From positions 44,613 through 108,612 of IMG/VR virus record IMGVR_UViG_3300024303_000028: a stretch of 64,000 bases of DNA; one strand, given 5' to 3'. The stretch is from a virus (Duplodnaviria; Heunggongvirae; Uroviricota; Caudoviricetes). Under the pieces are notes generated by a model, which saw nothing but the letters and a program-made list of their open reading frames with translations, did no database searches and was not told where the DNA came from. Shown here piece by piece: positions 43,690-61,226 of this stretch. The position numbers were made by a program, and so were the translations under genes. Position 1 is the stretch's first letter. Each line of letters opens with the position of its first letter.

Positions 43690-44274
43690 TTACGAGTAGA
43701 TCAGACTAAGATTCAATGGGAATATTTCTGGACGTTCAGGGAACGAAAGAACATCCCATACATCTTCAAGATATACTTCCACATATGCAGTCTCAAGAAC
43801 TGGTGCTTTGAGAGCGCATTCACTACCGTTACAGAAAAACCAGCAACCACGTTTTTTCACTGGGTTCTCACGGCCGAAATAACCAAATCGCTCTTCAATC
43901 TCAGCACAACCGATGTTCATATCGGGATAGCTATCGAAGAAATCAGCTATAAAACGTGGCAAGTATTTTCGCGGAACAAAAACACGTATACCGCATTCGA
44001 ATGGGTCAGTAACACGTCCGAATGGTAATGACACTGTGCCTCGCTCAGTCACTTCCCGCATCTTGTTCACCTTCCAGTATCCTAATATACTTATACACCG
44101 TCGGCCGGCTGATATCACACAGCTTTGCGACCTGACAGATATTAAGCTCGCCGTTCTTATATCGCGGATAAATGCGTTTGAACTTCGATGGGATTTTGGC
44201 CAGAGTCGTTGGGGGTCTGCCTGGCCGGGAGTTCTTAACTGACACGTTTTCCTGATGATCTTCAGAGTCCACAA
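43690..44274 (-). CDS. hypothetical protein, PLDL-motif family member (true start probably internal)
   Basis: C-terminus EIFPLNLSLIYS matches the P-L-[DN]-L-x-x-[IL]-[FY] family motif. Confidence 0.4.
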   Translation of the reverse strand: MWTLKIIRKTCQLRTPGQADPQRLWPKSHRSSNAFIRDIRTASLISVRSQSCVISAGRRCISILGYWKVNKMREVTERGTVSLPFGRVTDPFECGIRVFVPRKYLPRFIADFFDSYPDMNIGCAEIEERFGYFGRENPVKKRGCWFFCNGSECALKAPVLETAYVEVYLEDVWDVLSFPERPEIFPLNLSLIYS

Positions 44275-44413
44275 ACCAAGACATGTGCTGATGATATGCA
44301 GGACTGATCAAGAGCTTCAAAATGTTCTCGATACTTGAGTCGCTCCCGTCGATCATACTGATCCACATTTCCACATCCGGTAATAAACCTTGGAATGAGA
44401 CGACGATCTTCAT
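44045..44413 (-). CDS. helix-turn-helix DNA-binding protein
   Basis: C-terminal HTH ICQVAKLCDISRPTVYKYIRIL; partially overlaps the previous ORF. Confidence 0.45.
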   Translation of the reverse strand: MKIVVSFQGLLPDVEMWISMIDGSDSSIENILKLLISPAYHQHMSWFVDSEDHQENVSVKNSRPGRPPTTLAKIPSKFKRIYPRYKNGELNICQVAKLCDISRPTVYKYIRILEGEQDAGSD

Positions 44414-44417
44414 TTTC

Positions 44418-44762
44418 TTACTCCTCTTCCAGTAGACTGATCAGAGCATTTGCGTTCTCGCCGATGGTGATCATGTCCTCAAAGTTGGATGTATTCACAA
44501 AGTGAATCAGCTGGTCAATGGTGGTAAAGATGATCTCATCCATTAGTTCTCCATCGACGCAAACCGTAATCATCCTGAGATACGGAAGAACTGCGACCTG
44601 AACCTCAGTCTCTTCTTTGCCATACTCGGTATACGCAATATCCATGCTGGGCTGGAGACTCTGGAAAACATTGTGCTGACCATATTCGCGAATGCAAAAG
44701 GCGTTCATGGCCGTCAGCATACGAACGAGCTGACTCGCGTTCAGTGATGTCTGAGTTGTCAT
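44418..44762 (-). CDS. hypothetical protein
   Basis: 114 aa. Confidence 0.4.
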   Translation of the reverse strand: MTTQTSLNASQLVRMLTAMNAFCIREYGQHNVFQSLQPSMDIAYTEYGKEETEVQVAVLPYLRMITVCVDGELMDEIIFTTIDQLIHFVNTSNFEDMITIGENANALISLLEEE

Positions 44763-44772
44763 ATTACCCTCC

Positions 44773-45036
44773 TCAAAACTTCAGTTTGTTCAAAATACAC
44801 TCTGCTATATTTCTCAGGTGTTCGTGGCGCTGTTCTTCGCTCTGGAAACAACCAGTCCAGCCATCGCCGACTGCAGCCTCATAAATGATCTCACCATCTA
44901 CGTCTGGATAGGAGCAATACAGTGATCCACACCGAAGACGAACATAGCCCACAAGATGGTCGTTAGGGTCATAGACATCGTACTGTTCCGGACATGCGGA
45001 GCATGTACGAACAAACAGCAAATTACCAATTTGCAT
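44773..45036 (-). CDS. hypothetical protein
   Basis: 87 aa. Confidence 0.4.
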   Translation of the reverse strand: MQIGNLLFVRTCSACPEQYDVYDPNDHLVGYVRLRCGSLYCSYPDVDGEIIYEAAVGDGWTGCFQSEEQRHEHLRNIAECILNKLKF

Positions 45037-45136
45037 GTTACGCCTCCTGATTACTTCTTTACAATGTAACGATCACAGCCAACATAAGCACTCACCACAC
45101 GCATGATTGATCCCTTTGGAATCTCTTGGTGCTTTC

Positions 45137-45397
45137 TCACAACTCCTGAAAAATATATCTAGAGTTCATGGTTTCGACGATCAAATCATTCTGATCGCGG
45201 AAAATGTTCTCGACACGAGAAGTTTGGAGATAGCCATCCTTGAGGTTGCCATCTCTATCCTTATGGTACATCAGCCACATGCACCAGCCAATGGTCAGCT
45301 CTTCGCAAAACGAAACGGTGCAACCAATACGGAGTGGATAACGGCCGTCAGTACGGGTTTCCCCGGTCTTGATATGTTGAATATCTTTAATAATCAT
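45137..45397 (-). CDS. hypothetical protein
   Basis: 86 aa. Confidence 0.4.
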   Translation of the reverse strand: MIIKDIQHIKTGETRTDGRYPLRIGCTVSFCEELTIGWCMWLMYHKDRDGNLKDGYLQTSRVENIFRDQNDLIVETMNSRYIFQEL

Positions 45398-45415
45398 GAT
45401 TGAGACTCCTTCTAT

Positions 45416-45661
45416 TTACTCTGACAGAGTTAACACATGCTGTTTTCTGGTGTTCCTCGCGCGAACAATTTCAGATCGCAGGCAACCACATGAACGCGTC
45501 AGTTGCCTACGCAAAGACTGTCCAGAAACAATGCACGTGTTTCCGCACTTACATTTGCAGTACCACATGGCTGCGGTGGAGGTCCCGAACTTTTGGCGTG
45601 GAGCTCGTCCGGACACATATAAGTTGCCGACAGTTCTGCCGGTCATATCAACAACGCGCAT
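45416..45661 (-). CDS. small zinc-ribbon protein
   Basis: CKCKCGNTC...CGC. Confidence 0.4.
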   Translation of the reverse strand: MRVVDMTGRTVGNLYVSGRAPRQKFGTSTAAMWYCKCKCGNTCIVSGQSLRRQLTRSCGCLRSEIVRARNTRKQHVLTLSE

Positions 45662-45850
45662 ACTTCCTCCATATTATCTTATGAATGTTTGAGATAAGCC
45701 GCTATGAGACGATATGGTAACCGTCGTCCCGGGCATGAACCAAGATTTCACCGACAGCCAAACCACGTCGATAGAGACTTCACACATGGCGGAAATCTCG
45801 TATGTCCGTCCCGTCTGATGATTTCTGACAGTATAAATCATCGTCGCACC

Positions 45851-46219
45851 TCACTCGATAGTGAACTTTTTGACTCGAACAGGAGCATCCGGCTTTAGTG
45901 AGCGCATGGTTTCTATCATATGCTGTGTGCCTCTGCTCTCTCCGTCATGGAATGCAACCAGTGCATCTGCATACTTGGCCATCTGGACATTCCTGCGGAA
46001 GCCGGCAAGCTTACCAAATGACGCCCAGTCCGCAGGGAATGTAATAAGGCCATACCCTCGCTCCTTTGCATATCGTTCGCCCAGCGCATCCGCTCCGCGG
46101 GCATGACCGCTTACGATCTCAATCGGCTCTTTGACATTGGCGAGTACCTTATCGAGATAAGACTTGAGCATCTCGTAATCACTGAAGCTCCGACTTCCGG
46201 CAACGATAACACGAAACAT
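45851..46219 (-). CDS. Rossmann-like DprA/SLOG-type small protein (phage-associated DUF)
   Basis: RVIVAGSRSF...IVSGHARGAD glycine-rich nucleotide-binding-like loops. Confidence 0.45.
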   Translation of the reverse strand: MFRVIVAGSRSFSDYEMLKSYLDKVLANVKEPIEIVSGHARGADALGERYAKERGYGLITFPADWASFGKLAGFRRNVQMAKYADALVAFHDGESRGTQHMIETMRSLKPDAPVRVKKFTIE

Positions 46220-46244
46220 GGTTGACCTCCTTCAAATTTTTAAG

Positions 46245-46328
46245 TGGCGCAGGTGGGACTCGAACCCACACGCTGTTCCCAGCACCGGATTTTGAGACCG
46301 GTTCGTCTGCCATTCCGTACACTGCGCC
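46245..46328 (-). tRNA. tRNA-Leu (anticodon CAA), class II
   Basis: Acceptor GGCGCAG/CTGCGCC, loop CTCAAAA, extra arm GCTG-GGAA-CAGC, T-arm GTGGG-TTCGAGT-CCCAC. Confidence 0.65.
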
Positions 46329-46329
46329 G

Positions 46330-46440
46330 AAAGAAAATCCAGCCTGAATAATCGGCTGGATCTGTTTGCGGGTACTCTTTCAGCCCGCGGCTTAGGCGGG
46401 GAACTTCCCCGCTTTATGAGCCGCGCCCGCCCGGCATATG
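46330..46440 (-). ncRNA. hairpin-rich noncoding segment (terminator and/or small RNA candidate)
   Basis: Minus strand: GCGGGGaagttCCCCGC and CCAGCCgattattcaGGCTGG hairpins, the second followed by ATTTTCTTTC. Confidence 0.3.
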
Positions 46441-46462
46441 GTTATAAATCCCTTCTTCATCC

Positions 46463-46550
46463 AAGGCTCAGCCGAGATTCGAACTCGGTTCACCATAAGC
46501 ATCACACCATCGCCAATGCTTAAGACCCAAGGACTCAGAGAATTTGCGTT
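46463..46550 (-). pseudogene. tRNA-like fragment (T-arm plus 3' acceptor remnant, no matching 5' acceptor)
   Basis: CCGAG-TTCGAAT-CTCGG T-arm followed by CTGAGCC, but no complementary 5' strand found. Confidence 0.3.
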
Positions 46551-46755
46551 TCAAGATCTGTAATTTCATATTTTTCTTGGGCATGAAAATACGATCTGCC
46601 TTTGAAGTACGCGCCGCACTTACACTTATAGTGTCGCACAACCTCAATTTCCCAATCATTTTCGTTGTAGTCCGTTTCCAATATCTTGAGATTCAGGGCG
46701 TCATTGCACTGCGGGCATCTCGTCGTGTGTTAGCGCTCCTCAAATTTTATTTTTA

Positions 46756-47061
46756 TTACTTCCAATCCAACATCTGTCCACACTGAGTACAATAAATATC
46801 GTCTTTGGTTACATCTGGATGGTATTTATTTTCTCCGCAAGCACAGCCACAAGTAGGACATCCATATTTCCAACCATCATCAATCAACAACTTATATGTC
46901 AGCTTCTCAGGCTTCTTTGGAATCTGTTTCTCAAGGGCTTCTTTTGCCATCTCTAACCATTCAATATCGTCTGAAGTTAGTTGATATCCTAATGTTTCAT
47001 CGTAATGATAATCAGAGGATAAAACATCATCAATGTATTTAATTGCTTCTTTTACATCCAT
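46756..47061 (-). CDS. small Cys-rich (zinc-binding) protein
   Basis: GCPTCGCACGENKYH...CTQCG. Confidence 0.45.
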   Translation of the reverse strand: MDVKEAIKYIDDVLSSDYHYDETLGYQLTSDDIEWLEMAKEALEKQIPKKPEKLTYKLLIDDGWKYGCPTCGCACGENKYHPDVTKDDIYCTQCGQMLDWK

Positions 47062-47100
47062 AAATTTACCCCTTAAAAGTTTGTTTTTATAATATTTCCG

Positions 47101-47406
47101 TTAGCTCAACGATGGCTTTCCGAAGTCAACCATCTCCAGAGTACTTGTATTTGCATTATTGATAAGCATTGTTAGTTGTTTTTGTAAGATTTTTGCCTCA
47201 TCAATGGTAAGTCTAATAGTTGAACACCACTGCCCTTGATATCTGCGATATGTCTCCAAGCTAATGCGTACTTTGCCATTATCATCTTCTATCCACATTG
47301 TAGTGTTAAGAGACTCGTCTCCTTGTTTGAATCGGAAACTTGTTTGTGTCTTGTCATTACAACGTTTTGCCGCTTCGAGTATGTCCTTTTTTAAATTCGC
47401 TGACAA
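47101..47406 (-). CDS. hypothetical protein
   Basis: 101 aa; TTG start. Confidence 0.4.
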   Translation of the reverse strand: MSANLKKDILEAAKRCNDKTQTSFRFKQGDESLNTTMWIEDDNGKVRISLETYRRYQGQWCSTIRLTIDEAKILQKQLTMLINNANTSTLEMVDFGKPSLS

Positions 47407-47436
47407 ATAATCACCTCATAAAATTCGTATTATAAG

Positions 47437-47508
47437 TGGATCCAGAGGGATTCGAACCCCCGACTCCCTGCTTGCAAAGCAGGTACGCTACCGCTGCGTC
47501 ATGAACCC
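47437..47508 (-). tRNA. tRNA-Ala (anticodon UGC)
   Basis: Anticodon arm CCTGC-TTTGCAA-GCAGG; G3:U70 wobble in the acceptor stem (Ala identity element); T-arm GGGGG-TTCGAAT-CCCTC. Confidence 0.75.
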
Positions 47509-47790
47509 ATGAAGCACAGCAATGGACGAACGTTTTTACCTGTTAAACTAACCGCCAGCTATTGACGGTATCGGGTTTGAACCAATGTGTTCGGACCATT
47601 GCTGTGGAGAGTCGGCTCGTTCAGGGCGACCATTCCTTATTAGATGCAACGCTCTCTATGCATTAACCAAGACTGGAGCGCAAGCTGAGGAGGTCGATCT
47701 CAGTTGCATTCTCCAATGGAACATGGATTTCTGTTCTCTGGGGAAGATCCAACGGGTTGCGCTTACAGCATGGCAGAGGCGTGTTGGATA

Positions 47791-47879
47791 TGGTGCCGAT
47801 GGCGGGGGTCGAACCCGCGGTGTATCGATGTAACGGTTTTTAAGACCGCTGTGTCTCGTCCTGTCTGCACCACATCGGC
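47791..47879 (-). tRNA. tRNA-Leu (anticodon UAA), class II, encoded CCA
   Basis: Acceptor GCCGATG/CATCGGC then ACCA; loop CTTAAAA; 14-nt variable arm; T-arm GCGGG-TTCGACC-CCCGC. Confidence 0.75.
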
Positions 47880-47912
47880 ATGTGTATCATTTCATCCGGA
47901 CATGTTTCAAAT

Positions 47913-48242
47913 TCATTGAAAGATTTCTTTCAAATCCAACGGGATGACAGAATCTTCAATAGTCTCGAGTTCTTCGATGCCGATGATCTTGTACCCATGT
48001 CTTTTGAAATAAGACGCCTGATCCCAGCCAACGCCAAGATCGTATAGGGACTTGCCGATGGTAACATTCTCTCCATACTTTTCATAAGCGAACTTCAGCC
48101 ATTTCTCGTCATACTTATCATATATGCACGTCTCAGGATGTAGTGTCTTTCTAGCAAATAGCATGAAGGTAAGTGCGTTCATGCCACAACGAACTGCAAC
48201 TTTACCTTCCTCAAAGCCGTCTGGTAGAACGAATTGCTTCAT
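47913..48242 (-). CDS. PLDL-motif family small protein (paralog 1)
   Basis: 109 aa, N-terminal VAVRC...LTFMLFA, C-terminal VIPLDLKEIFQ. Confidence 0.55.
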   Translation of the reverse strand: MKQFVLPDGFEEGKVAVRCGMNALTFMLFARKTLHPETCIYDKYDEKWLKFAYEKYGENVTIGKSLYDLGVGWDQASYFKRHGYKIIGIEELETIEDSVIPLDLKEIFQ

Positions 48243-48258
48243 CTGTCCATCTCCCTCT

Positions 48259-48588
48259 TTATGAGTAAATATCGGTTAGATTCAATGGATTTGGGTTGCA
48301 TCGACCGGTGACATGGGCATCGAAGTATTCCTCAAATTCTGTAAATGGGATAACCGGAAAGCCATACTCAGAATAAAAAATTTCCTCACCCGTACTTAAT
48401 CTACCGTCTAGCTTACGAACGCCAAGCCCATGCGCATAACACACCGTCTTGAAGTCATAACGATCCAGCTCGCCGCCGAGCGGATAATGCGAGAAACCAA
48501 ATTCCTCGGCAAGATCACAGAAGAGATCGTTGTCCTTTGCTTCGACCTTAACGGCCATCCGAGTATTCATCAAGTCTCTAAAATTCAT
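48259..48588 (-). CDS. PLDL-motif family small protein (paralog 2)
   Basis: 109 aa, C-terminal NPNPLNLTDIYS. Confidence 0.55.
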   Translation of the reverse strand: MNFRDLMNTRMAVKVEAKDNDLFCDLAEEFGFSHYPLGGELDRYDFKTVCYAHGLGVRKLDGRLSTGEEIFYSEYGFPVIPFTEFEEYFDAHVTGRCNPNPLNLTDIYS

Positions 48589-48606
48589 ACGATCCCTCCA
48601 TTAAAG

Positions 48607-48686
48607 TGCAGGAAGCGGGACTTGAACCCGCACGTGCTGGACACCAGATCCTAAGTCTGGCGCGTCTGCCATTCCGCCATTCCTGC
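48607..48686 (-). tRNA. tRNA-Leu (anticodon UAG), class II
   Basis: Acceptor GCAGGAA/TTCCTGC; arm CCAGA-CTTAGGA-TCTGG; 13-nt variable region; T-arm GCGGG-TTCAAGT-CCCGC. Confidence 0.7.
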
Positions 48687-48687
48687 A

Positions 48688-48778
48688 TGGTAGGAGCTCC
48701 CGGATTCGAACCGGGGTTTACCTTGCTAGGGCTTCCGGTTTATAAGACCGGGGCTCTCACCGGCTGAGCTAAGCTCCC
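48688..48778 (-). tRNA. unusual tRNA: anticodon UAU (Ile-like), class-I-type D-arm but a 19-nt extra arm, encoded CCA
   Basis: Acceptor GGGAGCT/AGCTCCT+ACCA; D-arm GCTC-AGCCGGTGA-GAGC; anticodon arm CCGGT-CTTATAA-ACCGG; T-arm CCCGG-TTCGAAT-CCGGG; 5' end overlaps the HNH gene's last 3 codons. Confidence 0.5.
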
Positions 48779-49332
48779 ATTTGATAAGCTCTTGAATGTG
48801 ATTCCAATCCGTAACTCTTGCACCATTTTCTGACAGCATTATCAGTAACTGAGTACATTCTCCCCACAGCAGTGAAGTTCCCGTGCTGCTCACTAATCAC
48901 CGATCTCAGTTCTTTCTTGGAAGGCTTAGCTGATACACGCTGTCGTCTCACTACGGTGCGCTGCTTTCGCTTTGAATGGCTAGCGCCTTTCATATTTTCT
49001 TTATGGTCAACCCATCGCAAATTACCTAGATGATTGTTTGCACGATTACGATCGATGTGGTCTACCTCTGGAAGTGATAACGGATTGTCAAGAAATGCTT
49101 CTGCAACTAAGCGATGAATGTACTTTTTATATTGTTTTCCATCGACATTCAGACCAATTTGCATATAACCAGTAGTAGTTACATATGATTGCCGAAGATG
49201 CTCGGGTTGCCACACCAATGCGCCGTTATTCTTTATATACCGTCCCTTCGTAAGAACCCTTCCATGAGATGAAATCATGTGAGAAGATTCAAAGCCGACT
49301 ACATCTTTCCAAACCTCCTGTGTATAATCCAT
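48769..49332 (-). CDS. HNH homing endonuclease (NUMOD4-like N-terminus, HNH core, C-terminal HTH)
   Basis: Start at MDYTQEVW after a GGAG RBS. VDHIDRNRANNHLGNLRWVDHKEN HNH motif. C-terminal GRMYSVTDNAVRKWC shared with ORF 12266-12529. Confidence 0.8.
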   Translation of the reverse strand: MDYTQEVWKDVVGFESSHMISSHGRVLTKGRYIKNNGALVWQPEHLRQSYVTTTGYMQIGLNVDGKQYKKYIHRLVAEAFLDNPLSLPEVDHIDRNRANNHLGNLRWVDHKENMKGASHSKRKQRTVVRRQRVSAKPSKKELRSVISEQHGNFTAVGRMYSVTDNAVRKWCKSYGLESHSRAYQMGA

Positions 49333-49697
49333 ACCATTCACTCCAAACATAAATAGAATGGGACAGCAGGTCTGACGGACTGCTGTCCCAAGGCACTGTC
49401 TTACTCCTGTCAGTGGAGCGTAAAGACGATGCCACAATCCGCGCCTCCGCTACCCTTTATGCATGGGGCGTGAGGCACTTGCGCTTTGCCAGTCATCAGC
49501 GTTTGTCAACAGGCAACTGATCAGGCCGCCGCGGCGCCGCTCGAAAACATAACTAGCATGCCACGCCGCTTGTTGTTTTGGGACTTTGAACCCACAGGGA
49601 TTCCGGACTCCCCGGTAGCTTTACTGGCGGACCTTAACGTCGGTCCAAACGGCGGATGGGTTGTGATCGGCTAACCTCTTTTGCTCTAAATGCCGTG

Positions 49698-49770
49698 AGC
49701 TACTGGTGGGACTTGAACCCACGACCTACTGATTACGAGACAGTTGCTCTACCTGCTGAGCTACAGCAGC
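49698..49770 (-). tRNA. tRNA-Thr (anticodon CGU)
   Basis: Acceptor GCTGCTG/CAGTAGC; arm ACTGT-CTCGTAA-TCAGT (U31-U39 mismatch); T-arm GTGGG-TTCAAGT-CCCAC. Confidence 0.65.
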
Positions 49771-50030
49771 ATATGGTACAGACTAAAGTCGCGTACTTCA
49801 GTTGTACCACACGTTTGCAAACACTCTGGCCTGTATACAAGCCATTGTCGGGAGCGAGAGGAATCGAACCTCATCAAACCATCTCTCCCATACCAACCCG
49901 GTTAGGTCCGGGCAGCCCGCGCATCTGCCGTTTGATCGCAGTGAGAACGTACCCGCCATTCGACTTGATATTGATCGTCCTCACTCTGCCTTTGAGTAGT
50001 GGCGCAATTTGCTATCATATCTACTCGTGG

Positions 50031-50114
50031 AGCTGGTAGCCAGATTCGAACTGGCGATGCGGTTTCCCATCCGGCTTACAAAACCGGCGCACTCGGCCGC
50101 TGTGCGATACCAGC
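50031..50114 (-). tRNA. unusual tRNA: anticodon UGU (Thr-like) with a 15-nt extra arm
   Basis: Acceptor GCTGGTA/TACCAGC; arm CCGGT-TTTGTAA-GCCGG; extra arm (G)ATG-GGAAACCG-CAT(C); T-arm GCCAG-TTCGAAT-CTGGC. Confidence 0.5.
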
Positions 50115-50121
50115 ATGATTG

Positions 50122-50451
50122 TTATTCGTTTATATCCCAACATGTGAAAATCAACGATAGATCAAGCGGAGAAACACGTTCAATTTCTCCACAAACATCG
50201 CTTAATGTAAGAATCGGATCTTTGCCAACGCTGTCTCGACTAAGGTGTATTCCGAGACGCCTGTCGCCATGTCGACCTCGCGTCATACCAAGATACATAT
50301 GCTTGAAGGGCTTAATCGAACAATGGCGACTGCATTCCTCACCGTTAATCCAAACAATGTTTTCTCGAGCACACAAATCCATGAACGCGTAGAACTCGTC
50401 CGCCCCATTGATTTCGATCGCATAATTCCCGTGAATAATCCGGTCCATCAT
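50122..50451 (-). CDS. PLDL-motif family small protein (paralog 3)
   Basis: 109 aa, AIEINGADEFYAFMDLCARENIVW, C-terminal VSPLDLSLIFTCW. Confidence 0.55.
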   Translation of the reverse strand: MMDRIIHGNYAIEINGADEFYAFMDLCARENIVWINGEECSRHCSIKPFKHMYLGMTRGRHGDRRLGIHLSRDSVGKDPILTLSDVCGEIERVSPLDLSLIFTCWDINE

Positions 50452-50475
50452 ACCCCTCCATGTTAGAATTAAAAG

Positions 50476-50856
50476 TCATAAACCGGCATCCTCCATGTAT
50501 ATGTCATTTAGATCAATCGGTGCAACACATGTGCTGGGCACATACCCACACGCATCGAGAAGATCCTCATATGTATAAACGACCTGTGGACTCAGAGGTT
50601 TATGAGCATATCGGCCGACACATCCATACGTGGTGAGAGCAATACACGGTTCCCATCCACGTTCTTCATCCTTTCGATATAATTCGTCTATATGATCGGA
50701 TAACAAAGATGCACCGCTTGCAAACACCCATCCAAGCTCATGAAGCATTTCACATACATGGCGAAAGTCGTCTGCGTGGATACGGAATGCAACCGTACCA
50801 TTTTTATTCATTACGAAACCATTTGTGATGTCGACATATTGTCTTATTGCATCCAT
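50476..50856 (-). CDS. PLDL-motif family protein (paralog 4)
   Basis: Start trimmed to MDAIRQY (AAGGTGG RBS) because the track N-terminus (GTGGSNPS) is a translation of tRNA-Ser; C-terminal APIDLNDIYMEDAGL. Confidence 0.5.
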   Translation of the reverse strand: MDAIRQYVDITNGFVMNKNGTVAFRIHADDFRHVCEMLHELGWVFASGASLLSDHIDELYRKDEERGWEPCIALTTYGCVGRYAHKPLSPQVVYTYEDLLDACGYVPSTCVAPIDLNDIYMEDAGL

Positions 50857-50894
50857 ACTTCCGCCCACCTTACATCTTAATGCTGAATACCAAG

Positions 50895-50980
50895 CGCAGC
50901 GAGAGGGATTCGAACCCCCGGTGCCTTTCGACATCACTGGTTTTCAAGACCAGCGCCTTAAACCGCTCGGCCATCGCTGC
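50895..50980 (-). tRNA. tRNA-Ser (anticodon UGA), class II
   Basis: Acceptor GCAGCGA/TCGCTGC; arm CTGGT-CTTGAAA-ACCAG; 17-nt variable arm; T-arm GGGGG-TTCGAAT-CCCTC. Confidence 0.75.
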
Positions 50981-50994
50981 ACAAAACAAATGAA

Positions 50995-51309: not shown

Positions 51310-51472
51310 ACATCCTCCTAATTAGAAAACATTCAGGCTCCCTTATGCACCTTTGCCGAAGCGAGGGAGCCACCGTGCTTGGAGTGGGCGCGGCCCGAGC
51401 TCATATATTTGCTCGGATATGAACAGACAATGTGAAATGCTATGCGTACACAAGACTCAGGCGGCAACCTGA

Positions 51473-51548
51473 ATGGCTGGGGATGCAGGACTTGAACCTG
51501 CGCATACGGGAGTCAAAGTCCCGTGCCTTCACCAACTTGGCGAATCCC
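51473..51548 (-). tRNA. tRNA-Gln (anticodon UUG), encoded CCA
   Basis: U1:A72 acceptor TGGGGAT/ATCCCCA then GCCA; arm CGGGA-CTTTGAC-TCCCG; T-arm GCAGG-TTCAAGT-CCTGC. Confidence 0.75.
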
Positions 51549-52124: not shown

Positions 52125-52135
52125 AGATATGAGCC

Positions 52136-53587: not shown

Positions 53588-54059
53588 ATTTGATTGATCC
53601 AGCGTGCGGCCAAAGGTTATTGAGAATATACGATACATCAGGTCACACCTTGATGTCCTGTTCGCTAAGCGTCAGGTATGCATGACGAGTGATTGTGCTT
53701 CACAATCTGAAAGTGAGGCTCGTGACGTCTTCTCGAGGAGGAAGGCGCCATGGACCAGGTTCCTGAGCTGATCCGGAGCGGAGTTCAACGATCGTCAGTG
53801 TCTGGAGTCTGGGCAGAAGAACGAACGATATATGCGCAGTGGGACGAAGCGTTCGTGTGCTCGACCAGGACTAAGAGGTGAGCGGCCGCTTGAGTCGCAG
53901 CGAGCTGTCTCTCAAGGGCCCGCGGGACGACCGGTACCCGCAGGCGGGCAGGCTCCTCCTCCCTGACAATTCGTTACCACCGGTGAAACCTGATGGTGTT
54001 CGGTTGAAACGAACTATTCATTGTGAAGCGAAGGCTGATATTACATCAGCACGGATTGG

Positions 54060-54387: not shown

Positions 54388-54588
54388 TCAAAGTACGGTA
54401 AGTTCCGTCCGTTGAAAGGGGTCAAAAATGCGTAAATTTTGAAAATGATTCGCCGAAGATACCTCCAACACCGACTCTTGGAAGTACTCTTCGTACTCCT
54501 TTCTGGTGGGGAAAAGCATCCAACTGCCATCCGGGAGCCGGCCTCTGTGACCGCTCGGAACATCAAAGCCGCAGGGCGAATCATACAT
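54388..54588 (-). CDS. small ORF translationally coupled to the RT gene
   Basis: 66 aa; its start overlaps the RT stop by 8 nt. Confidence 0.3.
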   Translation of the reverse strand: MYDSPCGFDVPSGHRGRLPDGSWMLFPTRKEYEEYFQESVLEVSSANHFQNLRIFDPFQRTELTVL

Positions 54589-55723
54589 TACCGGACAGCT
54601 CCTTTCTGACCATTTCCATCAGGTCGACATTGAACTTCTCATTGTAGCGGCGAATGATATGTTCAATGTAGTCCTTTTCAACCATCTTGTAATAGGAAAT
54701 CAAACCGGAGAAAACCTGCACATCATGCAGTTCCCAATGCGTACCTTTCTGGACATCACAAATGAAGGAGTGACACATGGCTTTGAAACGATCCACGTTC
54801 TTCCAACCAATAGTGATTTGATTTCGACCGTTGAGCATCAGACCGAGACACCAATTGCTGCCGGAAGAAGAACCGTAGTGAGTCTTCTTACCATTGATAG
54901 AAAAAGGAGCGTTGAATGCCTTCAGGGTTGCAACGACCCTTGCTTCGATCTTTTTATAATTGAAGTCATGGGGACAGCTGATCAGAATATCGTCGGCATA
55001 TCGGGTATACGTCATATGCACTTCATGAAGTCCGTTGGCTAGGCGATGGTCAAGGGGGATCATCATGAGGTTGGTCAACATGGGAGAGATCGGCGTACCC
55101 TGAGGCAACCCACCGTTCAGCGTGCAGAGATTCAAACATTTCCTCAAAGCGACAGGGCCTTCAGGATCTCGCACAACCTCCGTAAAGGGGAAGATCTGTG
55201 TGATCTGATCGAACAAAAAGTTCTCAGTGGTAGACGGAAAAAAACCGGAAAAGTCCAGCTTCAAAAACCATCGTGCACCGGTGGCCTGATGGCGCTTCAG
55301 GACATCAACCGTGCTACGATCTTTGACGTATGCGAAAGCGGATGTATGATGGAGAGCGAAAAACTTCGTCTCAAAGATCGTTTTCAGCTCGTTCAGCGCC
55401 GCTTTCAACTCTTCATTCGGAGCGTCGATCTGGCGCAAACCGCCGGTCTTCTTCGGAATGTGGAAGGTATGGTACAGTTCTTGACGAGGCCGGTTGTACA
55501 ATGCGGCATGACGATCTGCAAAATCTTTCAAAACCGCGGTCAGAAGTGATGGGGATACCTGTGCTCTGAGACGTTCCGGAATTTGAGACACGTGACGGGT
55601 GATCGTTCCGCCACCGGCGACACGGTCAGGCTCATTCAGAAGGGACTCGAATGATCCATAAATCATTTCCTCGAGAGTCAGCTGTCGAGCTTTACGAAGA
55701 ATATGAGTAGTAATGTAAGGCAT
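54581..55723 (-). CDS. retron-type reverse transcriptase
   Basis: Start at the ATG 9 nt after GGAGG. Motifs LKLDFSGFFPST (xDxxxFFxSI-like), LPQGTPISPMLTNL, RYADDILIS (YADD), KKTHYGSSSGSNWCLGLMLN (retron NxxH...VTG-type region, here CLG). No maturase X or endonuclease domain. Confidence 0.75.
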   Translation of the reverse strand: MPYITTHILRKARQLTLEEMIYGSFESLLNEPDRVAGGGTITRHVSQIPERLRAQVSPSLLTAVLKDFADRHAALYNRPRQELYHTFHIPKKTGGLRQIDAPNEELKAALNELKTIFETKFFALHHTSAFAYVKDRSTVDVLKRHQATGARWFLKLDFSGFFPSTTENFLFDQITQIFPFTEVVRDPEGPVALRKCLNLCTLNGGLPQGTPISPMLTNLMMIPLDHRLANGLHEVHMTYTRYADDILISCPHDFNYKKIEARVVATLKAFNAPFSINGKKTHYGSSSGSNWCLGLMLNGRNQITIGWKNVDRFKAMCHSFICDVQKGTHWELHDVQVFSGLISYYKMVEKDYIEHIIRRYNEKFNVDLMEMVRKELSGNV

Positions 55724-56076
55724 GGATGAACCTCCTCTGTAACCTGTGATATCTGTGTGGATGAGGGGCACGCAAGTTAGTTAGTGCTCGTTGCAGTAAC
55801 TTAGCGATTGGTGCCTTAGAGAAAAATTTGTCGATGAGTGCGAACAACATGTTGCTTTGGTAAAGGTTGAAGGAACTGATATCTTGGGGTTGACAATCGA
55901 GTCGAAATCTGTTACCAGAAGCGAGCAGTTGCCTGAAGAGAAGAGGCGCGCGTAATACGTGGATCCTGCAGCTGGCTGCCTCTCTCTCCTCGCCGACGAT
56001 TCGTTACTCCCGGTAAGACCTGAGAGTCCTCCTAAAGATAGAAGGTATGCGTTACAGAATTAACATTTTAGGTGCG
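55724..56076 (-). ncRNA. candidate retron ncRNA (msr/msd) region upstream of the RT
   Basis: 353-nt ORF-poor leader. 8-nt inverted repeat UCUGUAAC (plus 56051-56058) ... GUUACAGA (plus 55736-55743) at its two ends, like a2/a1. Five GTWAC motifs. 10-nt palindrome CAACATGTTG. Confidence 0.3.
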
Positions 56077-56754: not shown

Positions 56755-57429
56755 TTAAAGGGCGACGAGATCGAACTTGAAAGCGTCGAAGATGATCATC
56801 TTCTTCAGCTCCTCACCGCGGACGAAGTTGATGAAGTTTGCGACACCCATAGCGACGATGTTACGAATGGTGGGGCATACGGAAAGCTCCACGCCACAGG
56901 CGGAAACAGGCGTTTCGGCTTTTGCTTCCTCATGGGTGAAATCCATAGAGGCGATGAAGGATTTGACCATCTGCTGGTCAGACCAGTCGGCAGCATAATG
57001 CTGAGCGTCGGTCAGACGAGTTCGGAAGTCGAAGAAACCCTTGATGAATGAATTACCGACACAGGACTTCGCGATCTTCTGACGGAGCTCGATGGAGTCG
57101 ACACAGAGGAAGACATATCCCGCCAGGTTTTGATTGACATACCCCTTCGTCTGCACCCGCAGATCCTTCTTCACATCAGGGTTGATGCGGGCGAGGTGGT
57201 CGGCTAGTGCTTCAACCTTCGGGCGACCAATATCTTCATGGTCGAAAAGCTGGTTGGAAATGTTCTTGGACTCCACGACATCGAAGTCGTAGAGAGTCAT
57301 CTGAGTGATGCCAAAGCGTGCAAGGTTTTCAGCGACAACGGAACCAACAGAACCGCAACCGATGATGTGTACACGGCCCTTCACGTCGTTCGGGCTGAAC
57401 CAGCCGTGAAACTTGATCTGGTTGAACAT
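56755..57429 (-). CDS. ThiF/MoeB/HesA-family E1-like adenylyltransferase
   Basis: Rossmann loop HIIGCGSVGSVVAENLARFG; DIGRPKVEALADHLARINPDV matches the ThiF/MoeB signature; C-terminal Cys pair SACGVELSVC. Confidence 0.75.
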   Translation of the reverse strand: MFNQIKFHGWFSPNDVKGRVHIIGCGSVGSVVAENLARFGITQMTLYDFDVVESKNISNQLFDHEDIGRPKVEALADHLARINPDVKKDLRVQTKGYVNQNLAGYVFLCVDSIELRQKIAKSCVGNSFIKGFFDFRTRLTDAQHYAADWSDQQMVKSFIASMDFTHEEAKAETPVSACGVELSVCPTIRNIVAMGVANFINFVRGEELKKMIIFDAFKFDLVAL

Positions 57430-57443: not shown

Positions 57444-58304
57444 TTAATACTGATGGTATCCGCCGCCCCAGATGAAATCATCATAATCATCGACATCGTC
57501 GATATCAAAACCCTGATTGTTAACAGGATTCGCGTAAGACGGGCGCGTTTTGGTGGTATCCGCTTTGGTACGAGCTTTCTTAGGCGTCTGGGGCTGCTTC
57601 GTAGACGCCGTCTGAGTTTTGGCAGCAGCACCAGACTTTCCACCGACGGTAGTAGGCGTGGCGGGGGTGTACCTGCGGGTTGCGATCAGAGAATTTGCTT
57701 CCTCAATGAAAGTACGAATCTTGGACTGCGGGAAAATGATGTCCACATCTTCCTTTTCATAGAGGGTGTTGTTGTCTGCATCGTACACCTTGACGATGTA
57801 CTCACGACGCTTATTCAGAATCATGAAGATATAAAAACCTTCATCGTTCAGCTGCGCAACGATCTTGCCCTGATGCTCAAGGTCAGTACCAGACGGGGAA
57901 CACGCCATGTTGACATGACTATGAGCCTGGAACTTCAGCTTCGCGAAGTCCTCATCATTGATCGTCATCAGCCAGGCATCATAAGCCTCCTGGTCGGTTT
58001 CGACAGTTACACCAGTAACCGTCTGAGGATACACCAGAATCTTTTCGACCAGGAAATGATTGGGGGCGACTCTGCTGACCAGACCATGCCAGGCGACTTC
58101 GGTACTGAAGTAGTCGATCAGGGCGAACATTTTTTCACAGGCTTCTTCAGTGAACTCAACCTTCACACGCTCATCGTTGCGAAAGGAAAAGTCCTGACTG
58201 AATGCAAGCTTGCCATCGAGGATCTGCATGCCGGGCAACTTCTTCATGAGTTGCTCAGCAATCTGACCCAAAATCTGAGGAGTGACACGCATAGGCTTAG
58301 GCAT
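57444..58304 (-). CDS. JAMM/JAB (MPN+) metallopeptidase
   Basis: HSHVNMACSPSGTD = HxHx7Sx2D JAMM motif, upstream Glu (EVAWHG); low-complexity Thr/Lys/Pro tail ending FIWGGGYHQY. Confidence 0.75.
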   Translation of the reverse strand: MPKPMRVTPQILGQIAEQLMKKLPGMQILDGKLAFSQDFSFRNDERVKVEFTEEACEKMFALIDYFSTEVAWHGLVSRVAPNHFLVEKILVYPQTVTGVTVETDQEAYDAWLMTINDEDFAKLKFQAHSHVNMACSPSGTDLEHQGKIVAQLNDEGFYIFMILNKRREYIVKVYDADNNTLYEKEDVDIIFPQSKIRTFIEEANSLIATRRYTPATPTTVGGKSGAAAKTQTASTKQPQTPKKARTKADTTKTRPSYANPVNNQGFDIDDVDDYDDFIWGGGYHQY

Positions 58305-59742
58305 TATTCAACTCTCCCTTCAAATACAGCAGAGCGTCCTCCGGACTAACGAACCGCCCATCAAGCAGTTCGATACATTTCTTGCTGGTACAGAACAGTT
58401 CTTCGAGGAAGTGGGTCATCGTCGGGGATTCACCGACATTCAGAGACGCAGCACTGGTCTTACACTGCATCACAGCGCCGATCAGATCACCTGCCTGAAT
58501 TCGATCCTGAATCAGCTCAAGATGCTGACCGAAGCAGGCGAAGTGGTACAGGTGCGGATTCGGCATATAGTCCTTGTATTCCGGAGCGAAGCTATAACTA
58601 CTCACGGTACTGATGGTTCCACGGGTATCGAGGTTATAGTACGCGACGAAACGAACCTTCATAATGGGATCAGGTCCGAAGATTGCTTTCAGAAGCATCA
58701 TGCGATCTTCCTCATCATCGAAGAAATCGCTGACGGATACATCATCCCAATAGAAAGAATCTTCATTGTTGGCGATAGACTCAAACATATCGGGATCCCA
58801 GAATTCGATAGGAGTGGTGACGATGAAGGAAAAACCCTCAGCTTTAGCTTCCACGGGATTAAACCACGTCTGATGATTCAGGAATTCGATGAGTTCTTCA
58901 TCGTTGCCGCCGGCGTTCTTACGGAGGATGTACGCAGACAGATCGAGATTCCGCTGATCCAGCATGAGACACAGTTCGCGGTAGCTCGCCATCAAATCGG
59001 ACATCCTGCGCCGAATGTGGCTGATATCTTCGTTGAGCGCATTGATATGAACGTCAGCGACGCGCTTCATCAAACCGCCGCAAACGCTTTTGATCTGATA
59101 CCCACGGAAGTCGATATTCTTTTCGAGAACTCGAATGGCGTTCAGATACGCTTCCTCGGTTTCGCTGTTAAGGCCGCGGATGACCTCGAACTCTTCGGGG
59201 GTAACCGGCTTACCCTCAAAAAGCGCAGGCAGCAGGGGCGGGATCAGACACTGCAGAGCATGCCATGTACGCGTATCCATCGTGTTGAGGAAGATCAGCA
59301 CAGCACACTTCTCCTTGTTGCAGAAGATGCGACAGTGAGAGACCAGCTTCGTGCTTTCGATATGACTGCTCAGTTTTGCAACATACTCAAAGTTGGAATC
59401 CTTGAACTTGTCGCTCAGATTCTGCATCGTATTGTCAGCCCGTTCTCCAGCCTGGCGAAGATTGACAATCGCAATCTCGTGATCCGGGACATGGCCAATG
59501 ACTCGCGTCATCAGATGTTCGTCGTCAAGGTAATTACCCGAGGATTCGATATTCACGGCAGAATCATTTACCCACATGGAAAACGTCTCTCCTTCGGGCA
59601 AACGGTTGCCGAGAAACGCTCTCAGGGTTGCGGTGAAAGAATAGTCGCCGCGGAAGGTGCGGCCCGAAATACGATCAAAGATCGCGTTACCAGCGGGACT
59701 GGTGAACTGGGTGTCCTGCTGGGTGACGGAATACATAAACAT
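58297..59742 (-). CDS. large protein with C-terminal E2/UBC-like signature (tentative)
   Basis: C-terminal YSFAPEYKDYMPNPHLYHFACFGQ resembles UBC FxPEYPxxPP...HPN...C. N-terminal ~350 aa unassigned. Operon order (this gene, JAB, E1) matches E2-JAB-E1 systems. Confidence 0.4.
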   Translation of the reverse strand: MFMYSVTQQDTQFTSPAGNAIFDRISGRTFRGDYSFTATLRAFLGNRLPEGETFSMWVNDSAVNIESSGNYLDDEHLMTRVIGHVPDHEIAIVNLRQAGERADNTMQNLSDKFKDSNFEYVAKLSSHIESTKLVSHCRIFCNKEKCAVLIFLNTMDTRTWHALQCLIPPLLPALFEGKPVTPEEFEVIRGLNSETEEAYLNAIRVLEKNIDFRGYQIKSVCGGLMKRVADVHINALNEDISHIRRRMSDLMASYRELCLMLDQRNLDLSAYILRKNAGGNDEELIEFLNHQTWFNPVEAKAEGFSFIVTTPIEFWDPDMFESIANNEDSFYWDDVSVSDFFDDEEDRMMLLKAIFGPDPIMKVRFVAYYNLDTRGTISTVSSYSFAPEYKDYMPNPHLYHFACFGQHLELIQDRIQAGDLIGAVMQCKTSAASLNVGESPTMTHFLEELFCTSKKCIELLDGRFVSPEDALLYLKGELNNA

Positions 59743-59835
59743 TTAGAAACCTCCTCACGGCGATTTGTACATGAGACCCTAATCAAAGGAAAGGCCGGGA
59801 CTTAACGCCCCGGCCTTGATTTTCGATTATTCCGA

Positions 59836-60534
59836 TCAGGCTTCGGTGATAGCCGCAGCGACGGCAGCCTTCTCAGCCTTGACCTCCGCCAGAGCGGCGG
59901 CGAAACCAGCCTCGACCTTGCGCAGCTGCAGGATGGCGACGCCGACCTCTTCCTGAACCCACGCCTTCATATCGACGGTGCCCTCGGGAGCAGTCAGGGT
60001 CACAAGGGCATTGCCCTCAGCGGTAGTGACGCGGGAGAACATCACACCGTTCTGACCGACACAACCGCCCTTATCGCCGTCAGTCAGGATGCTGAAAACC
60101 GCATGCTTTTCGGCACCGGAACCTTCCATCAGGGACAGGACGGCAGGGCGATACTTCTTCAGGAGCTTGATATCCTCGAGCTTCTGAGAGGAAATGATGT
60201 GGGCGATGTTGCCGATGATCTGGATCTTGGCGACGGGAGTGTCGTTGGCGGCCACAACTTCGGCCTCGCAATCGGAGGCGTTGTCGGCCTTGGTGGTCAC
60301 CATGACGAAGCAGCGAGGACTGGTGATGCCCAGGTCATCCAGGGACTTATCGATCGCGCCGGTGGGCAGGGAGGAACCGTCGATGGAGACGACGCCGGTG
60401 GCGTAGTCCATGCCGGCCTCATTGAAGATCTCACGCACGGTAGCGCCGGAGGAAACGTTGACGGTCTTGCTGGTGACGTTGTTGCGGACGGTAACGGAAA
60501 CGATCTGAGACATATTTATTCTCCTTTTATTCAA
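59836..60534 (-). CDS. hypothetical protein with N-terminal beta-grasp-like (ubiquitin-like?) region
   Basis: First ~80 aa alternate beta/alpha like a beta-grasp fold, but no C-terminal Gly-Gly; Ala-rich helical C-terminus. Assignment weak. Confidence 0.3.
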   Translation of the reverse strand: MNKRRINMSQIVSVTVRNNVTSKTVNVSSGATVREIFNEAGMDYATGVVSIDGSSLPTGAIDKSLDDLGITSPRCFVMVTTKADNASDCEAEVVAANDTPVAKIQIIGNIAHIISSQKLEDIKLLKKYRPAVLSLMEGSGAEKHAVFSILTDGDKGGCVGQNGVMFSRVTTAEGNALVTLTAPEGTVDMKAWVQEEVGVAILQLRKVEAGFAAALAEVKAEKAAVAAAITEA

Positions 60535-60860
60535 ATGATTTTGTATTTCGGAACTTTACCACGATTTACCGTGGTGGGGAGGTTGGTCGAGTTCAGTGGG
60601 GGAACGCGAACGCTGCTTCATGCTCTTCTCTCCTTTTCGGTCGTGAAGCGTACACCTTCAAATTGTCCGGGAAGTGAAAACTCCCCGCCGCAGTTCGTTA
60701 CCCTTTTGGGCATCCACCCTGCACCTCGTGGCGGTTGCGGCTCTGCAGGGCTACGGCCGCCTACCCACAATGGCGGCACGCATCCGATCCTCTGTTTAAT
60801 TAACATTTTTGTTAATCGATCGGCATTAAAAAACCTCGGCGACCATGACCGAGGTGAGGG

Positions 60861-61226
60861 TTAGCTGAAAACGAAATCCAGATTCAATGGGATTGCTTTT
60901 TCCAGATGAAGCACAGCATCTTCGAGAGCGTAACGGCGCTCTTTTTGGGAAAATTCAGGCTTTCTTGTACCTCCCACAATGATATCTCGATAGCCATTGT
61001 GACCGATCCAGCAATCGATCATACACCAATCGCAGTTACCAACGCAGTCATCTACAGATACTTTTGTTGGATTTATCCCGGCCGAAGTACGAATGCCTGC
61101 TTCTTCAAAAGCACGGAATACGTCAGCCGCATATGCCTTCTGAAAAAGCAGGGTAGAAACATGCTTATACTGATCCCCGTCAGGAATCGGCAATGTCGGG
61201 AACAGAAGGTTGAAATCAAGTTGCAC
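60861..61226 (-). CDS. PLDL-motif family small protein (paralog 6)
   Basis: C-terminal AIPLNLDFVFS. Confidence 0.5.
   Translation of the reverse strand: MQLDFNLLFPTLPIPDGDQYKHVSTLLFQKAYAADVFRAFEEAGIRTSAGINPTKVSVDDCVGNCDWCMIDCWIGHNGYRDIIVGGTRKPEFSQKERRYALEDAVLHLEKAIPLNLDFVFS

Follow-up and report, generated by a model that had tools for sequence, protein, structure and literature searches.

Eight genes for small proteins with a common C-terminal peptide lie in and around a phage tRNA array

The window analysed here is a stretch of 64,000 nt (G+C content 47%) that spans positions 44,613 to 108,612 of IMG/VR virus record IMGVR_UViG_3300024303_000028, from an uncultured, gut-type phage of the class Caudoviricetes. 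It carries on its minus strand a family of genes coding for small proteins that share a C-terminal peptide, hereafter referred to as the tail, and most of these genes are interleaved with tRNA genes. A first-pass annotation had described the family as seven paralogs. Using a six-frame scan of the window for [LIVM]-[DN]-L-x-x-[ILVM]-[FY], we recovered eight matches near the ends of minus-strand open reading frames (ORFs): the seven C-termini already quoted, each of which was found where it had been placed and on the minus strand, and a new one at 42082-42450, beyond the range first annotated. The family is real, but its members number eight, all ending in P-[LI]-[DN]-L-x-x-[ILV]-[FY], and one of them (43690) may share the tail alone. 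The genes and the tRNA array are listed below; members are designated in the rest of the text by their lower coordinate, and C-termini are written up to the stop codon.

42082-42450, minus strand: member 1, 122 aa, C-terminus PVPLDLTSIFA, tail codons 42111-42088
43604-52126, minus strand: tRNA array, 11 co-oriented tRNA genes (ARAGORN), with 6 family members embedded
43690-44061, minus strand: member 2, 123 aa (126 aa if the start is at 44070), C-terminus IFPLNLSLIYS, tail codons 43719-43696
47913-48242, minus strand: member 3, 109 aa, C-terminus VIPLDLKEIFQ, tail codons 47942-47919
48259-48588, minus strand: member 4, 109 aa, C-terminus NPNPLNLTDIYS, tail codons 48288-48265
50122-50451, minus strand: member 5, 109 aa, C-terminus VSPLDLSLIFT extended by CWDINE, tail codons 50169-50146
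50476-50856, minus strand: member 6, 126 aa, C-terminus APIDLNDIYM extended by EDAGL, tail codons 50520-50497
50995-51309, minus strand: member 7, 104 aa, C-terminus DPVPLDLIQLYSE, tail codons 51027-51004
60861-61226, minus strand: member 8, 121 aa, GTG start, C-terminus AIPLNLDFVFS, tail codons 60890-60867

The mechanical ORF list was too long for two members, giving 194 aa for 43690 and 153 aa for 50476. Because the 153-aa ORF overlaps a tRNA-Ser gene, we assigned the start of 50476 to position 50856, which yields a protein of 126 aa. Both members are also called in their shorter forms on 22-27 public metagenome contigs, the longest of 121,714 bp. Seven of the eight genes have a GGAGG-type Shine-Dalgarno sequence upstream, that of 50476 being less clear. 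The window members are acidic, with isoelectric points of 4.6-5.6, as are all 22 proteins obtained when the 14 paralogs of a second phage, L094 (see below), are included. Member 50995 is the nearest to the family consensus. A shared N-terminal pattern had also been proposed, which we read as G-x-V-A-V followed by F-x-x-L-C-E-x-x-G-x-x-W; it is clear in 50995, 50122, 42082 and 50476 and weaker in 47913, 48259 and 60861, but is absent from 43690.

The interleaving with tRNA genes was borne out, since six of the eight members lie within the array of 11 tRNA genes. The same arrangement recurs in the related contig L002 (13 tRNA genes) and in the distant phage L094 (7 tRNA genes and 14 paralogs). 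The distance between stop codon and tRNA gene is 14 nt for 43690 (tRNA-Gly), 33 nt for 47913 (tRNA-Leu(taa)), 7 nt for 50122 (tRNA-Thr) and 14 nt for 50995 (tRNA-Ser), and 48259 starts 17 nt after tRNA-Leu(tag). Such tight packing of ORFs and tRNA genes (43675-51000) suggests that tRNAs and mRNAs share polycistronic transcripts, the mRNA ends of which would be set by tRNA processing. Member 60861 lies 9.5 kb outside the tRNA array, just upstream of an E1/JAB gene cluster, with a terminator-like hairpin after its end. The start codon of 42082 overlaps the stop codon (ATGA) of a gene coding for a NifS-like cysteine desulfurase (42447-43577). This overlap is kept in the related contigs L001, L002 and L006, and 42082 is translationally coupled to the NifS-like gene.

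The tail is conserved as a peptide

The strict ending [LIF][DN]L..[ILV][FY] followed by 0-2 residues occurs in 6 of 423 window ORFs compared to none of 7,554 control ORFs (stop-to-stop ORFs of 60 aa or more from 1.38 Mb of DNA without relation to the phage), and two further window ORFs carry it with extensions. A much looser core pattern was found in 3 of 2,181 controls, 4 of 134 window ORFs and 7 of 35 ORFs of phage L094. The family is thus statistically robust, and it is found as arrays in the tRNA gene clusters of two related phage lineages. In an alignment of the eight proteins, the invariant columns fall in the tail alone. All six specified tail positions are kept in 8/8 members, the last of them being occupied by four Tyr and four Phe. 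This aromatic residue is penultimate in five of the eight members; it was ancestrally penultimate in the two extended copies, and two residues trail it in 50995.

Comparison with related contigs (L002, of 111 kb, L001, L005 and L006) allowed us to trace the form of the ending. Seven of the eight orthologues are visible in L002, the orthologue of 60861 being beyond that locus, and all seven end with the motif, one residue and the stop codon (for instance ..APIDLDDIYM, ..SPLDLSLIFT, ..VPFDLNKIYG and ..ACPLDLTQIYS). Two residues follow the aromatic in the L005 orthologue of 50476 (..ALDLASIYIL) and none in protein P0036 (..LDLASIF). From these alignments, the ancestral ending is the motif, 0-2 residues (mostly one) and the stop codon. 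The extended tails of 50122 and 50476 are, by the same comparison, of recent origin. That of 50122 (..IFTCWDINE) arose when about 230 bp were deleted, including the stop codon and a 71-aa gene, so that the tail was joined to the last codons of that gene; the gene is retained in L002, and in both L002 and P0022 the ending ..LIFT precedes a 71-aa gene with the terminus ..GWDINE. That of 50476 (..IYMEDAGL) is due to loss of the stop codon, the L002 orthologue ending ..IDLDDIYM.

The tail positions are kept even between strongly diverged orthologues. Those of 43690 are 39-40% identical and end PLDLTQIYS, and that of 50995 in L002 is 39% identical and ends ..VPFDLNKIYG; thus the bodies of these two members are only 39-40% identical to their L002 or L001 counterparts, yet the specified tail residues are the same while the x positions and the flanks differ. 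Orthologues of 42082 in L001, L002 and L006 retain the tail, and a distant orthologue of 60861, P0040, ends ..PTPLSLDSIFS. A degenerate tail was found in the L001 orthologue of 47913, which ends ..PIESLLDLFAVSGVVVIL.

Since several ORFs end 7-33 nt ahead of a tRNA gene, the conservation could in principle reflect a nucleic-acid signal overlapping the ORF ends, such as a promoter, a terminator, a tRNA-processing site or a recombination site. The codons of the conserved residues vary synonymously (Pro as CCT, CCA, CCG or CCC; Leu as CTC, TTG, CTT, CTG or CTA), so that third positions change freely while the amino acids are kept, indicating that the constraint is on the protein and not on the DNA. 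Moreover, members lacking a downstream tRNA gene carry the same tail, the sole DNA repeat between any two tails is 30 nt long with 73% identity, and promoter-like and terminator-like sites occur at the frequency expected from shuffled sequences. A DNA-level signal is effectively refuted by these data and has a vanishingly small probability.

The bodies are highly divergent and belong to a phage domain of about 90 aa

Overall pairwise identity among the eight proteins is 17-27%, and the tail is their best-conserved part. Body and tail are separated by a linker of approximately 7-16 residues that varies in length and is poorly conserved in sequence. We trimmed the tails and compared the subfamilies profile against profile with hhalign. 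The body of 50995 matched those of 50122 (probability 93%), 42082 (83%), 60861 (66%), 47913 (63%), 50476 (33%) and 48259 (14%). The body of 43690 exhibited no detectable similarity to any other subfamily (hhalign probability 0.1), and 43690 was missed by the body hidden Markov model (HMM) body5, which had been built without it.

Identity between window and L002 orthologues ranges from 96% down to 39%, a spread that demonstrates mosaic and rapid evolution. The ratio of nonsynonymous to synonymous substitution rates (dN/dS) is 0.14-0.57 for most of these pairs. For 48259, it reaches 1.38 against L002. In the orthogroup of this member (12 sequences), residues 54-82 vary at 18 of 29 positions, compared to 2 of the 27 C-terminal positions, one being the free last residue; the hypervariability lies mainly in a central patch, the rest of the protein and the tail being nearly invariant. 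The phage encodes a diversity-generating retroelement (DGR), and we looked between 42 and 62 kb for a DGR template repeat that would match this patch or any family member. None was found, and DGR-driven variation of the family was rejected.

As stated in the first-pass annotation, the family does not match any recognised system: no significant hit was obtained in Pfam-A, PHROGs, PADLOC or PDB, and the body in particular matched no Pfam family, annotated PHROG, PADLOC system, PDB sequence or PDB fold. HMMER searches against 1.84 billion representative proteins returned only 20 matches at E values up to 1e-3, which fall into two groups. The first consists of tail-bearing relatives on syntenic contigs (P0036, P0037, P0038 and P0040, the latter ending ..PLSLDSIFS). 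The second consists of larger phage proteins without the tail (P0033-35, P0039, P0041 and P0042), which contain 1-4 tandem copies of a domain of about 90 aa, plus the single-domain protein P0044. In the tandem-repeat relatives, as delimited with tail-free body HMMs, internal repeats run straight into the next repeat. The larger relatives fall in functionally unannotated PHROGs, and one tandem-repeat relative sits among genes coding for Lar anti-restriction, SSB and helix-turn-helix proteins. Homologous or structurally similar body domains are found in phrog_9112, phrog_4897, the BFVD entry A0A8S5MEC5 and D4N4K7 of Leuconostoc phage 1-A4; these proteins lack the tail, and their domains often occur as tandem repeats or fused to other domains. 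The family and its peptide are previously undescribed, and we found nothing relevant in the literature on phage HbYX motifs or shared C-terminal motifs.

An AlphaFold2 model of 50995 built from a wider alignment (model 2) had a mean predicted local distance difference test (pLDDT) score of 79. It comprises a helix (residues 2-5), a strand (9-13), two further helices (15-27 and 42-49), short strands, a strand (76-79) and a helix (80-89), followed by a short tail helix (98-102); residues 91-104, which cover linker and tail, scored approximately 80-84. On this model, the body is predicted to be an uncharacterised, phage-specific alpha/beta domain of about 90 aa.

These scores bring in a serious rival, and the main one, to any reading in which the tail contacts another protein. 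The tail could be a C-terminal capping helix that packs in cis in a hydrophobic groove of its own body, requiring no external partner; in origin, it might be left over from the N-terminal helix of a following repeat in a tandem-repeat ancestor. Both the confidently predicted tail helix of model 2 and the repeat proteins speak for such a cap: in the latter, the amphipathic D-F-x-E-F helix of the next repeat holds the equivalent position, a few residues past each body. However, the tail scored a pLDDT of just 59-68 in the first model, for which a shallower alignment had been used. The tail is also conserved beyond any core position of the body, is uniform across bodies that are approximately 17% identical, and occurs unchanged on the 43690 body, which has no detectable homology to the others. 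Finally, linker length varies, and the last repeats and single domains of other phage proteins do without a tail. We consider the cis cap unlikely, though it should be taken seriously.

A second phage lineage carries a uniform tail of its own

Protein P0044 is encoded by phage L094, a 41-kb contig whose GP88 is 65% identical to the GP88 of the window phage. L094 carries 14 paralogs of the body domain (100-141 aa) within 6.3 kb, interleaved with the seven tRNA genes of the locus. All 14 share a tail that is uniform but different from that of the window, D-[IL]-x-x-[IL]-L-x-COOH, with endings that include ..GDIASILL, ..GDLSEILS, ..SDILDILQ, ..DDLMQILQ, ..GDIHDILQ, ..DNIESILL and ..FLESILTT. Three of the 14 (4292-5821) are extended to Gly-Gly (..VLTGG, ..ILSGG and ..ILTNAGG); these ends recall ubiquitin-like C-termini, but the predicted body is not a beta-grasp fold.

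The window and L094 tails align as homologous ends of one domain. Common to both are Asp or Asn at position -7, hydrophobic residues at -6 and -3, a hydrophobic or aromatic residue at -2 and free residues at -5, -4 and -1, while an extra Leu at -8 is confined to the window lineage. Body identity is as low within the two genomes (0.17 and 0.21) as between them (0.18), and several window bodies match L094 bodies better than they match other window bodies. In contrast, tail identity is 0.42 and 0.41 within the genomes and 0.25 between them. Uniform tails on equally divergent bodies would be the pattern expected from co-evolution with one partner specific to the genome or to the host.

Uniformity of the tail within a genome would also be compatible with mutual assembly of the paralogs, the tail of one docking on the body of another and thereby rebuilding non-covalently the tandem architecture that other phages encode as 2-4 covalent copies of the body domain. 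The pLDDT of approximately 80 for the tail of 50995 likewise hints at packing on a body surface. We nevertheless hold such assembly to be very unlikely, as body surfaces are so extremely divergent that a common receptor groove is not evident, and the 43690 body is unrelated.

Both arrays also contain a 76-aa protein (52890-53120 in the window and 1265-1495 in L094; ..LLSPYYQ..G.FD..D..GVL.E..). The two copies are 45% identical, which makes the protein far better conserved than the array proteins and a candidate for a phage-encoded partner. Pattern scans of IMG/VR and of the JGI metagenomes revealed no further copies.

The tail resembles known docking peptides in part

Short hydrophobic peptides that bring proteins to a sliding clamp include the bacterial QL[SD]LF motif, the PIP box and the C-terminal tails common to gp43, gp33 and gp55 of T4, which bind gp45. 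The family tail resembles these in that one short hydrophobic C-terminal peptide on several different proteins would reach one hub, and its i, i+3, i+4 hydrophobic spacing is similar to that of the PIP box; it differs in lacking Gln and a double aromatic and in a spacing unlike the bacterial motif. The first-pass annotation had pointed to QLxLF peptides, and a motif of that type or a PIP-like one that binds DnaN could be argued for from the C-terminal position, from L-[DN]-L as in the QLNLF of UmuC and from the PIP-like order hydrophobic-x-x-hydrophobic-aromatic. The phage uses a DnaE-type polymerase, DnaB and DnaG, and the clamp would presumably be that of the host, as no clamp gene was found in the approximately 72 kb, of a contig of 110-122 kb, that we examined for clamp, peptidase and protease genes. 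Specifically, Pfam revealed no PCNA/gp45-type clamp in the scanned window ORFs or in the Pfam marks of L007, which reach approximately 8 kb past the end of the window.

The defining residues are nonetheless absent. At motif position 1, where clamp-binding peptides have Gln, 8/8 window tails have Pro or another residue and none of the 14 L094 tails has Gln. The constrained hydrophobic positions are -6, -3 and -2 instead of motif positions 2, 4 and 5 (or 6). Compared with the PIP box (Qxx[LIM]xx[FY][FY]), positions 7-8 read [ILV][FY] in window tails and [IL]L in those of L094, which lack an aromatic. In addition, the C-terminus of the phage DnaE carries no such motif. The QLxLF proposal therefore fails on the missing Gln, on its spacing and on the phage polymerase, and clamp binding of either type is in our view very improbable. 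The tails likewise never end in PF, as would the C-terminal tip of SSB (D-D-D-[IL]-P-F-COOH), and we rejected membership in the beta-clamp, PIP-box and SSB-tip classes. For comparison, the SSB of the phage itself (28006-28386) has a canonical tip, ..SNELPF.

A further resemblance is to the docking tails that AAA+ activators place in self-compartmentalised peptidases (HslV in the case of HslU, 20S-type rings in that of HbYX tails), which the family tail could mimic so as to block, open or re-target a host protease. Proteasome activators carry an HbYX motif, that is, a hydrophobic residue, Tyr and any residue at the extreme C-terminus. In the window, the tails have the ending hydrophobic-[F/Y]-X-COOH, and in most of them exactly one residue comes after the aromatic. 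However, Tyr and Phe are equally frequent there, and the number of trailing residues is 0 in P0036 and 2 in L005. L094 has Leu at -2, so that the HbYX form does not hold across the superfamily. To our knowledge, 20S proteasomes are not expected in the likely clostridial hosts. The tails of HslU have the form [ED]-D-L-x-x-[FY]-I-L-COOH, ending E-D-L-S-R-F-I-L-COOH in E. coli and I-D-L-A-K-Y-I-L-COOH in T. brucei HslU2 (PMC4106860). The HslU tail inserts between HslV subunits, and HslU octapeptides alone act as docking or activating peptides (PMC4106860). The register is gapless, with Asp at -7 and hydrophobic residues at -6 (Leu in HslU), -3 and -2 common to HslU, the window (for example L-D-L-S-L-I-F-T-COOH) and L094 (G-D-L-S-E-I-L-S-COOH). 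Against this, the aromatic is at -2 in the window and at -3 in HslU, and the last residue is polar or variable instead of a conserved Leu. It weighs against either type of activator tail that the aromatic is followed by 0-2 residues, or by up to 6 in the window, and that the amphipathic pattern is common to many unrelated docking peptides. The family bodies are not AAA+ ATPases. No HslV-like or ClpP-like gene was found in the 72 kb. The resemblance is only a lead, and mimicry of activator tails appears improbable.

The first-pass annotation had also considered a protease or chaperone tag, and the tail may serve as one. As a C-terminal degron, it would time the joint degradation of all members by a host or phage protease. 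C-terminal recognition tags such as those of ssrA and SulA are well known, and the extreme C-terminal position of the tail, its uncharged final residues and its presence on functionally diversified proteins would all suit such a role. Its eight constrained positions, on the other hand, exceed the needs of known bacterial C-terminal degrons and are unlike LAA-type tags. A degron would also leave the lineage-specific tail variant unexplained, and no protease is encoded nearby in the 72 kb. We accordingly see little likelihood in a degron.

A constant docking tail on variable bodies

The reading that we favour, with a confidence that we would place near the even mark, is that the variable bodies all attach to one shared partner through a constant docking peptide at the C-terminus. 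We infer all three of its elements: binding of the tail in trans, a single partner, and different targets for the bodies. The eight genes would code for rapidly diversifying small acidic proteins, probably expressed from a long minus-strand transcription unit that also carries the tRNAs. Each protein would consist of an alpha/beta body of about 90 aa, a linker of about 7-16 residues and an invariant C-terminal peptide of the form P-hydrophobic-[D/N]-L-x-x-hydrophobic-[F/Y]-x-COOH. This tail would form a single amphipathic turn, acidic or amide at -7 and hydrophobic at -6, -3 and -2, and would dock every paralog at the same site of one partner, which would be a hub or machine of the host or else a conserved protein of the phage. 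Differing specificities would come from the divergent bodies, some of which have a hypervariable central patch, and the set would work as an array of adaptors or inhibitors on one plug.

Several lines of evidence favour this docking model. The tail is better conserved than the bodies and sits on one body without detectable homology (43690). The body domain occurs elsewhere without the tail, and linker length varies. Each genome carries its own uniform tail variant. In 48259, variation clusters in the central patch while the tail stays invariant. Finally, acidity, a typical property of phage accessory proteins that bind other proteins, is common to all 22 members of the two arrays. The docking motif proposed in the first-pass annotation is thus, in its general form, the best-supported reading, given the conserved tail, the variable linker, the unrelated body, the tail-less domains and the L094 variant, although its beta-clamp version did not stand.

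Some observations weigh against the docking model. The pLDDT of approximately 80-84 for linker and tail suggests that the tail may pack on its own body. Members 50122 and 50476 tolerate 5-6 residues past the motif, so that either a free C-terminus is not strictly required or these copies are decaying. The argument from concerted tails rests on two lineages and on body similarities that are saturated and poorly resolved. Expression and translation are inferred from conserved ORFs, Shine-Dalgarno sequences and dN/dS values that are mostly below 1.

Known systems provide precedents for the design. SspB is an adaptor with a basic C-terminal ClpX-binding (XB) tail, LRVVK, and, as predicted for the family proteins, its folded body binds targets while a flexible linker without sequence conservation leads to a short conserved C-terminal peptide that docks on a machine. 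It bears no sequence or fold relationship to the family, whose tails are acidic-hydrophobic and whose paralogs are diversified and number 8-14 per genome. The ankyrin-repeat/PRANC (F-box-like) multigene families of poxviruses combine variable target-binding bodies with a conserved C-terminal module that engages a host machine, and they similarly form arrays of fast-evolving viral paralogs with one constant C-terminal docking module. This is a design analogy without homology, as these are eukaryotic viruses and their module is a folded F-box-like domain instead of an 8-residue peptide. In a more specific form of the docking model, which we consider fairly improbable, the family would be an adaptor battery: each body would capture a different host protein, for example a defence component, and the plug would bring every captured protein to a single host machine (an AAA+ protease or a peptidase ring, for instance) for destruction or sequestration. 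A plug that co-evolves with the host machine would explain the genome-specific tails, and the strategy would parallel hijacking of the poxvirus ANK/F-box or lentiviral Vif type.

In large temperate phages, most arrays of genes for small accessory proteins have yet to be characterised, and this family offers a direct experimental handle on them: a short, invariant and easily synthesised peptide on 8-14 otherwise unrelated-looking proteins per genome, of which a second lineage has a distinct version. Should the peptide be a docking plug, the hub targeted by these phages would be revealed by a single pull-down, and the variable bodies would define a set of host targets. Bacterial viruses would then use a strategy of constant plug and variable body known from eukaryotic viruses. 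Two further outcomes of our analysis are a new phage domain of about 90 aa, which is widespread, and the recurring association between paralog arrays and phage tRNA gene clusters.

Distribution of the family and genomic context

The arrays are not universal among phages. The body family was absent within 10 kb of each of 63 GP88-anchored loci, and INPHARED contained neither a DNA match nor a family member. Scans of IMG/VR and the JGI metagenomes with the family profile or anchored on the 76-aa protein gave nothing beyond one single-domain protein, and word-indexed homologue searches with three alignments returned near relatives alone. A NifS-anchored search of IMG/VR revealed five distant phages (L009-L013) without tail-bearing ORFs. 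In GTDB, the corresponding search found only cellular NifS proteins (39-45% identity, mostly from Clostridia) and no prophage. NifS had been a candidate partner because 42082 is coupled to it; as the distant NifS phages lack the family and no NifS is encoded in the 12.6 kb of L094 that we read, we regard it as no more than a weak lead.

The family belongs to one long minus-strand block of non-structural genes that extends from about 64 kb down to about 11.7 kb. The phage is temperate and resembles SPbeta or phiCD211. Its genes include those for a tyrosine integrase and a CHAP-SH3-LysM endolysin, and a DGR acts on a tail-fibre gene. A DnaE-type polymerase, DnaB, DnaG, an Erf recombinase, SSB, NrdD/NrdG, a dUTPase and a deoxynucleoside monophosphate (dNMP) kinase are also encoded. 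The SPbeta-like character is evident as well beyond the right end of the window (L007, 1-4700), where the phage has genes for a divergently transcribed YonO-type RNA polymerase with an RNA-dependent RNA polymerase fold, for a YonV-like protein and for a second protein of the integrase family. Judged by DnaE (43%), its nearest cultured relatives in INPHARED are the large C. difficile phages LIBA6276 and LIBA2945, and its NifS is most similar to NifS of Clostridia.

Several neighbouring elements were also observed. Inside the array, at 48688-49437, an HNH/NUMOD4 homing endonuclease gene (48769-49353) occupies the place where L002 (9582-9791) has tRNA-Met and tRNA-Val, and the 3' end of its ORF is overlapped by an unusually long (91 nt) tRNA-Ile(tat) call (48688-48778). 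Immediately downstream of member 60861, genes coding for a ThiF/E1-like protein (56755-57429) and a weakly JAB-like protein (57444-58304) form, with unannotated proteins of 481, 232 and 217 aa, a ubiquitin-like conjugation/deconjugation module in a phage (56077-60534). A reverse transcriptase gene at 54581-55771 scores as a retron type II-A reverse transcriptase (PADLOC, E = 4.7e-51) and is flanked by 38-nt direct repeats (53956-53993 and 55986-56023, 82% identical); it may be part of a phage-borne retron with a non-coding RNA. It is the second reverse transcriptase of the window, the first (4726-6015) belonging to the DGR (3-6015), which is of the classical type: a tail-fibre-like ORF (DUF6273, at least 1,124 aa) carries the variable repeat (3241-3368) at its 3' end, and the template repeat (4303-4430) is 86% identical to it. 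A 278-aa protein without a Pfam match (18780-19616), encoded in the nucleotide-metabolism block between the genes for dNMP kinase and a phosphoesterase, contains an internal LQLDLSEIYQ approximately 20 residues from its end, the only other near-match to the tail in the window and probably a chance one. A gene coding for a MazF/PemK-like toxin (33944-34381) also lies within the non-structural block.

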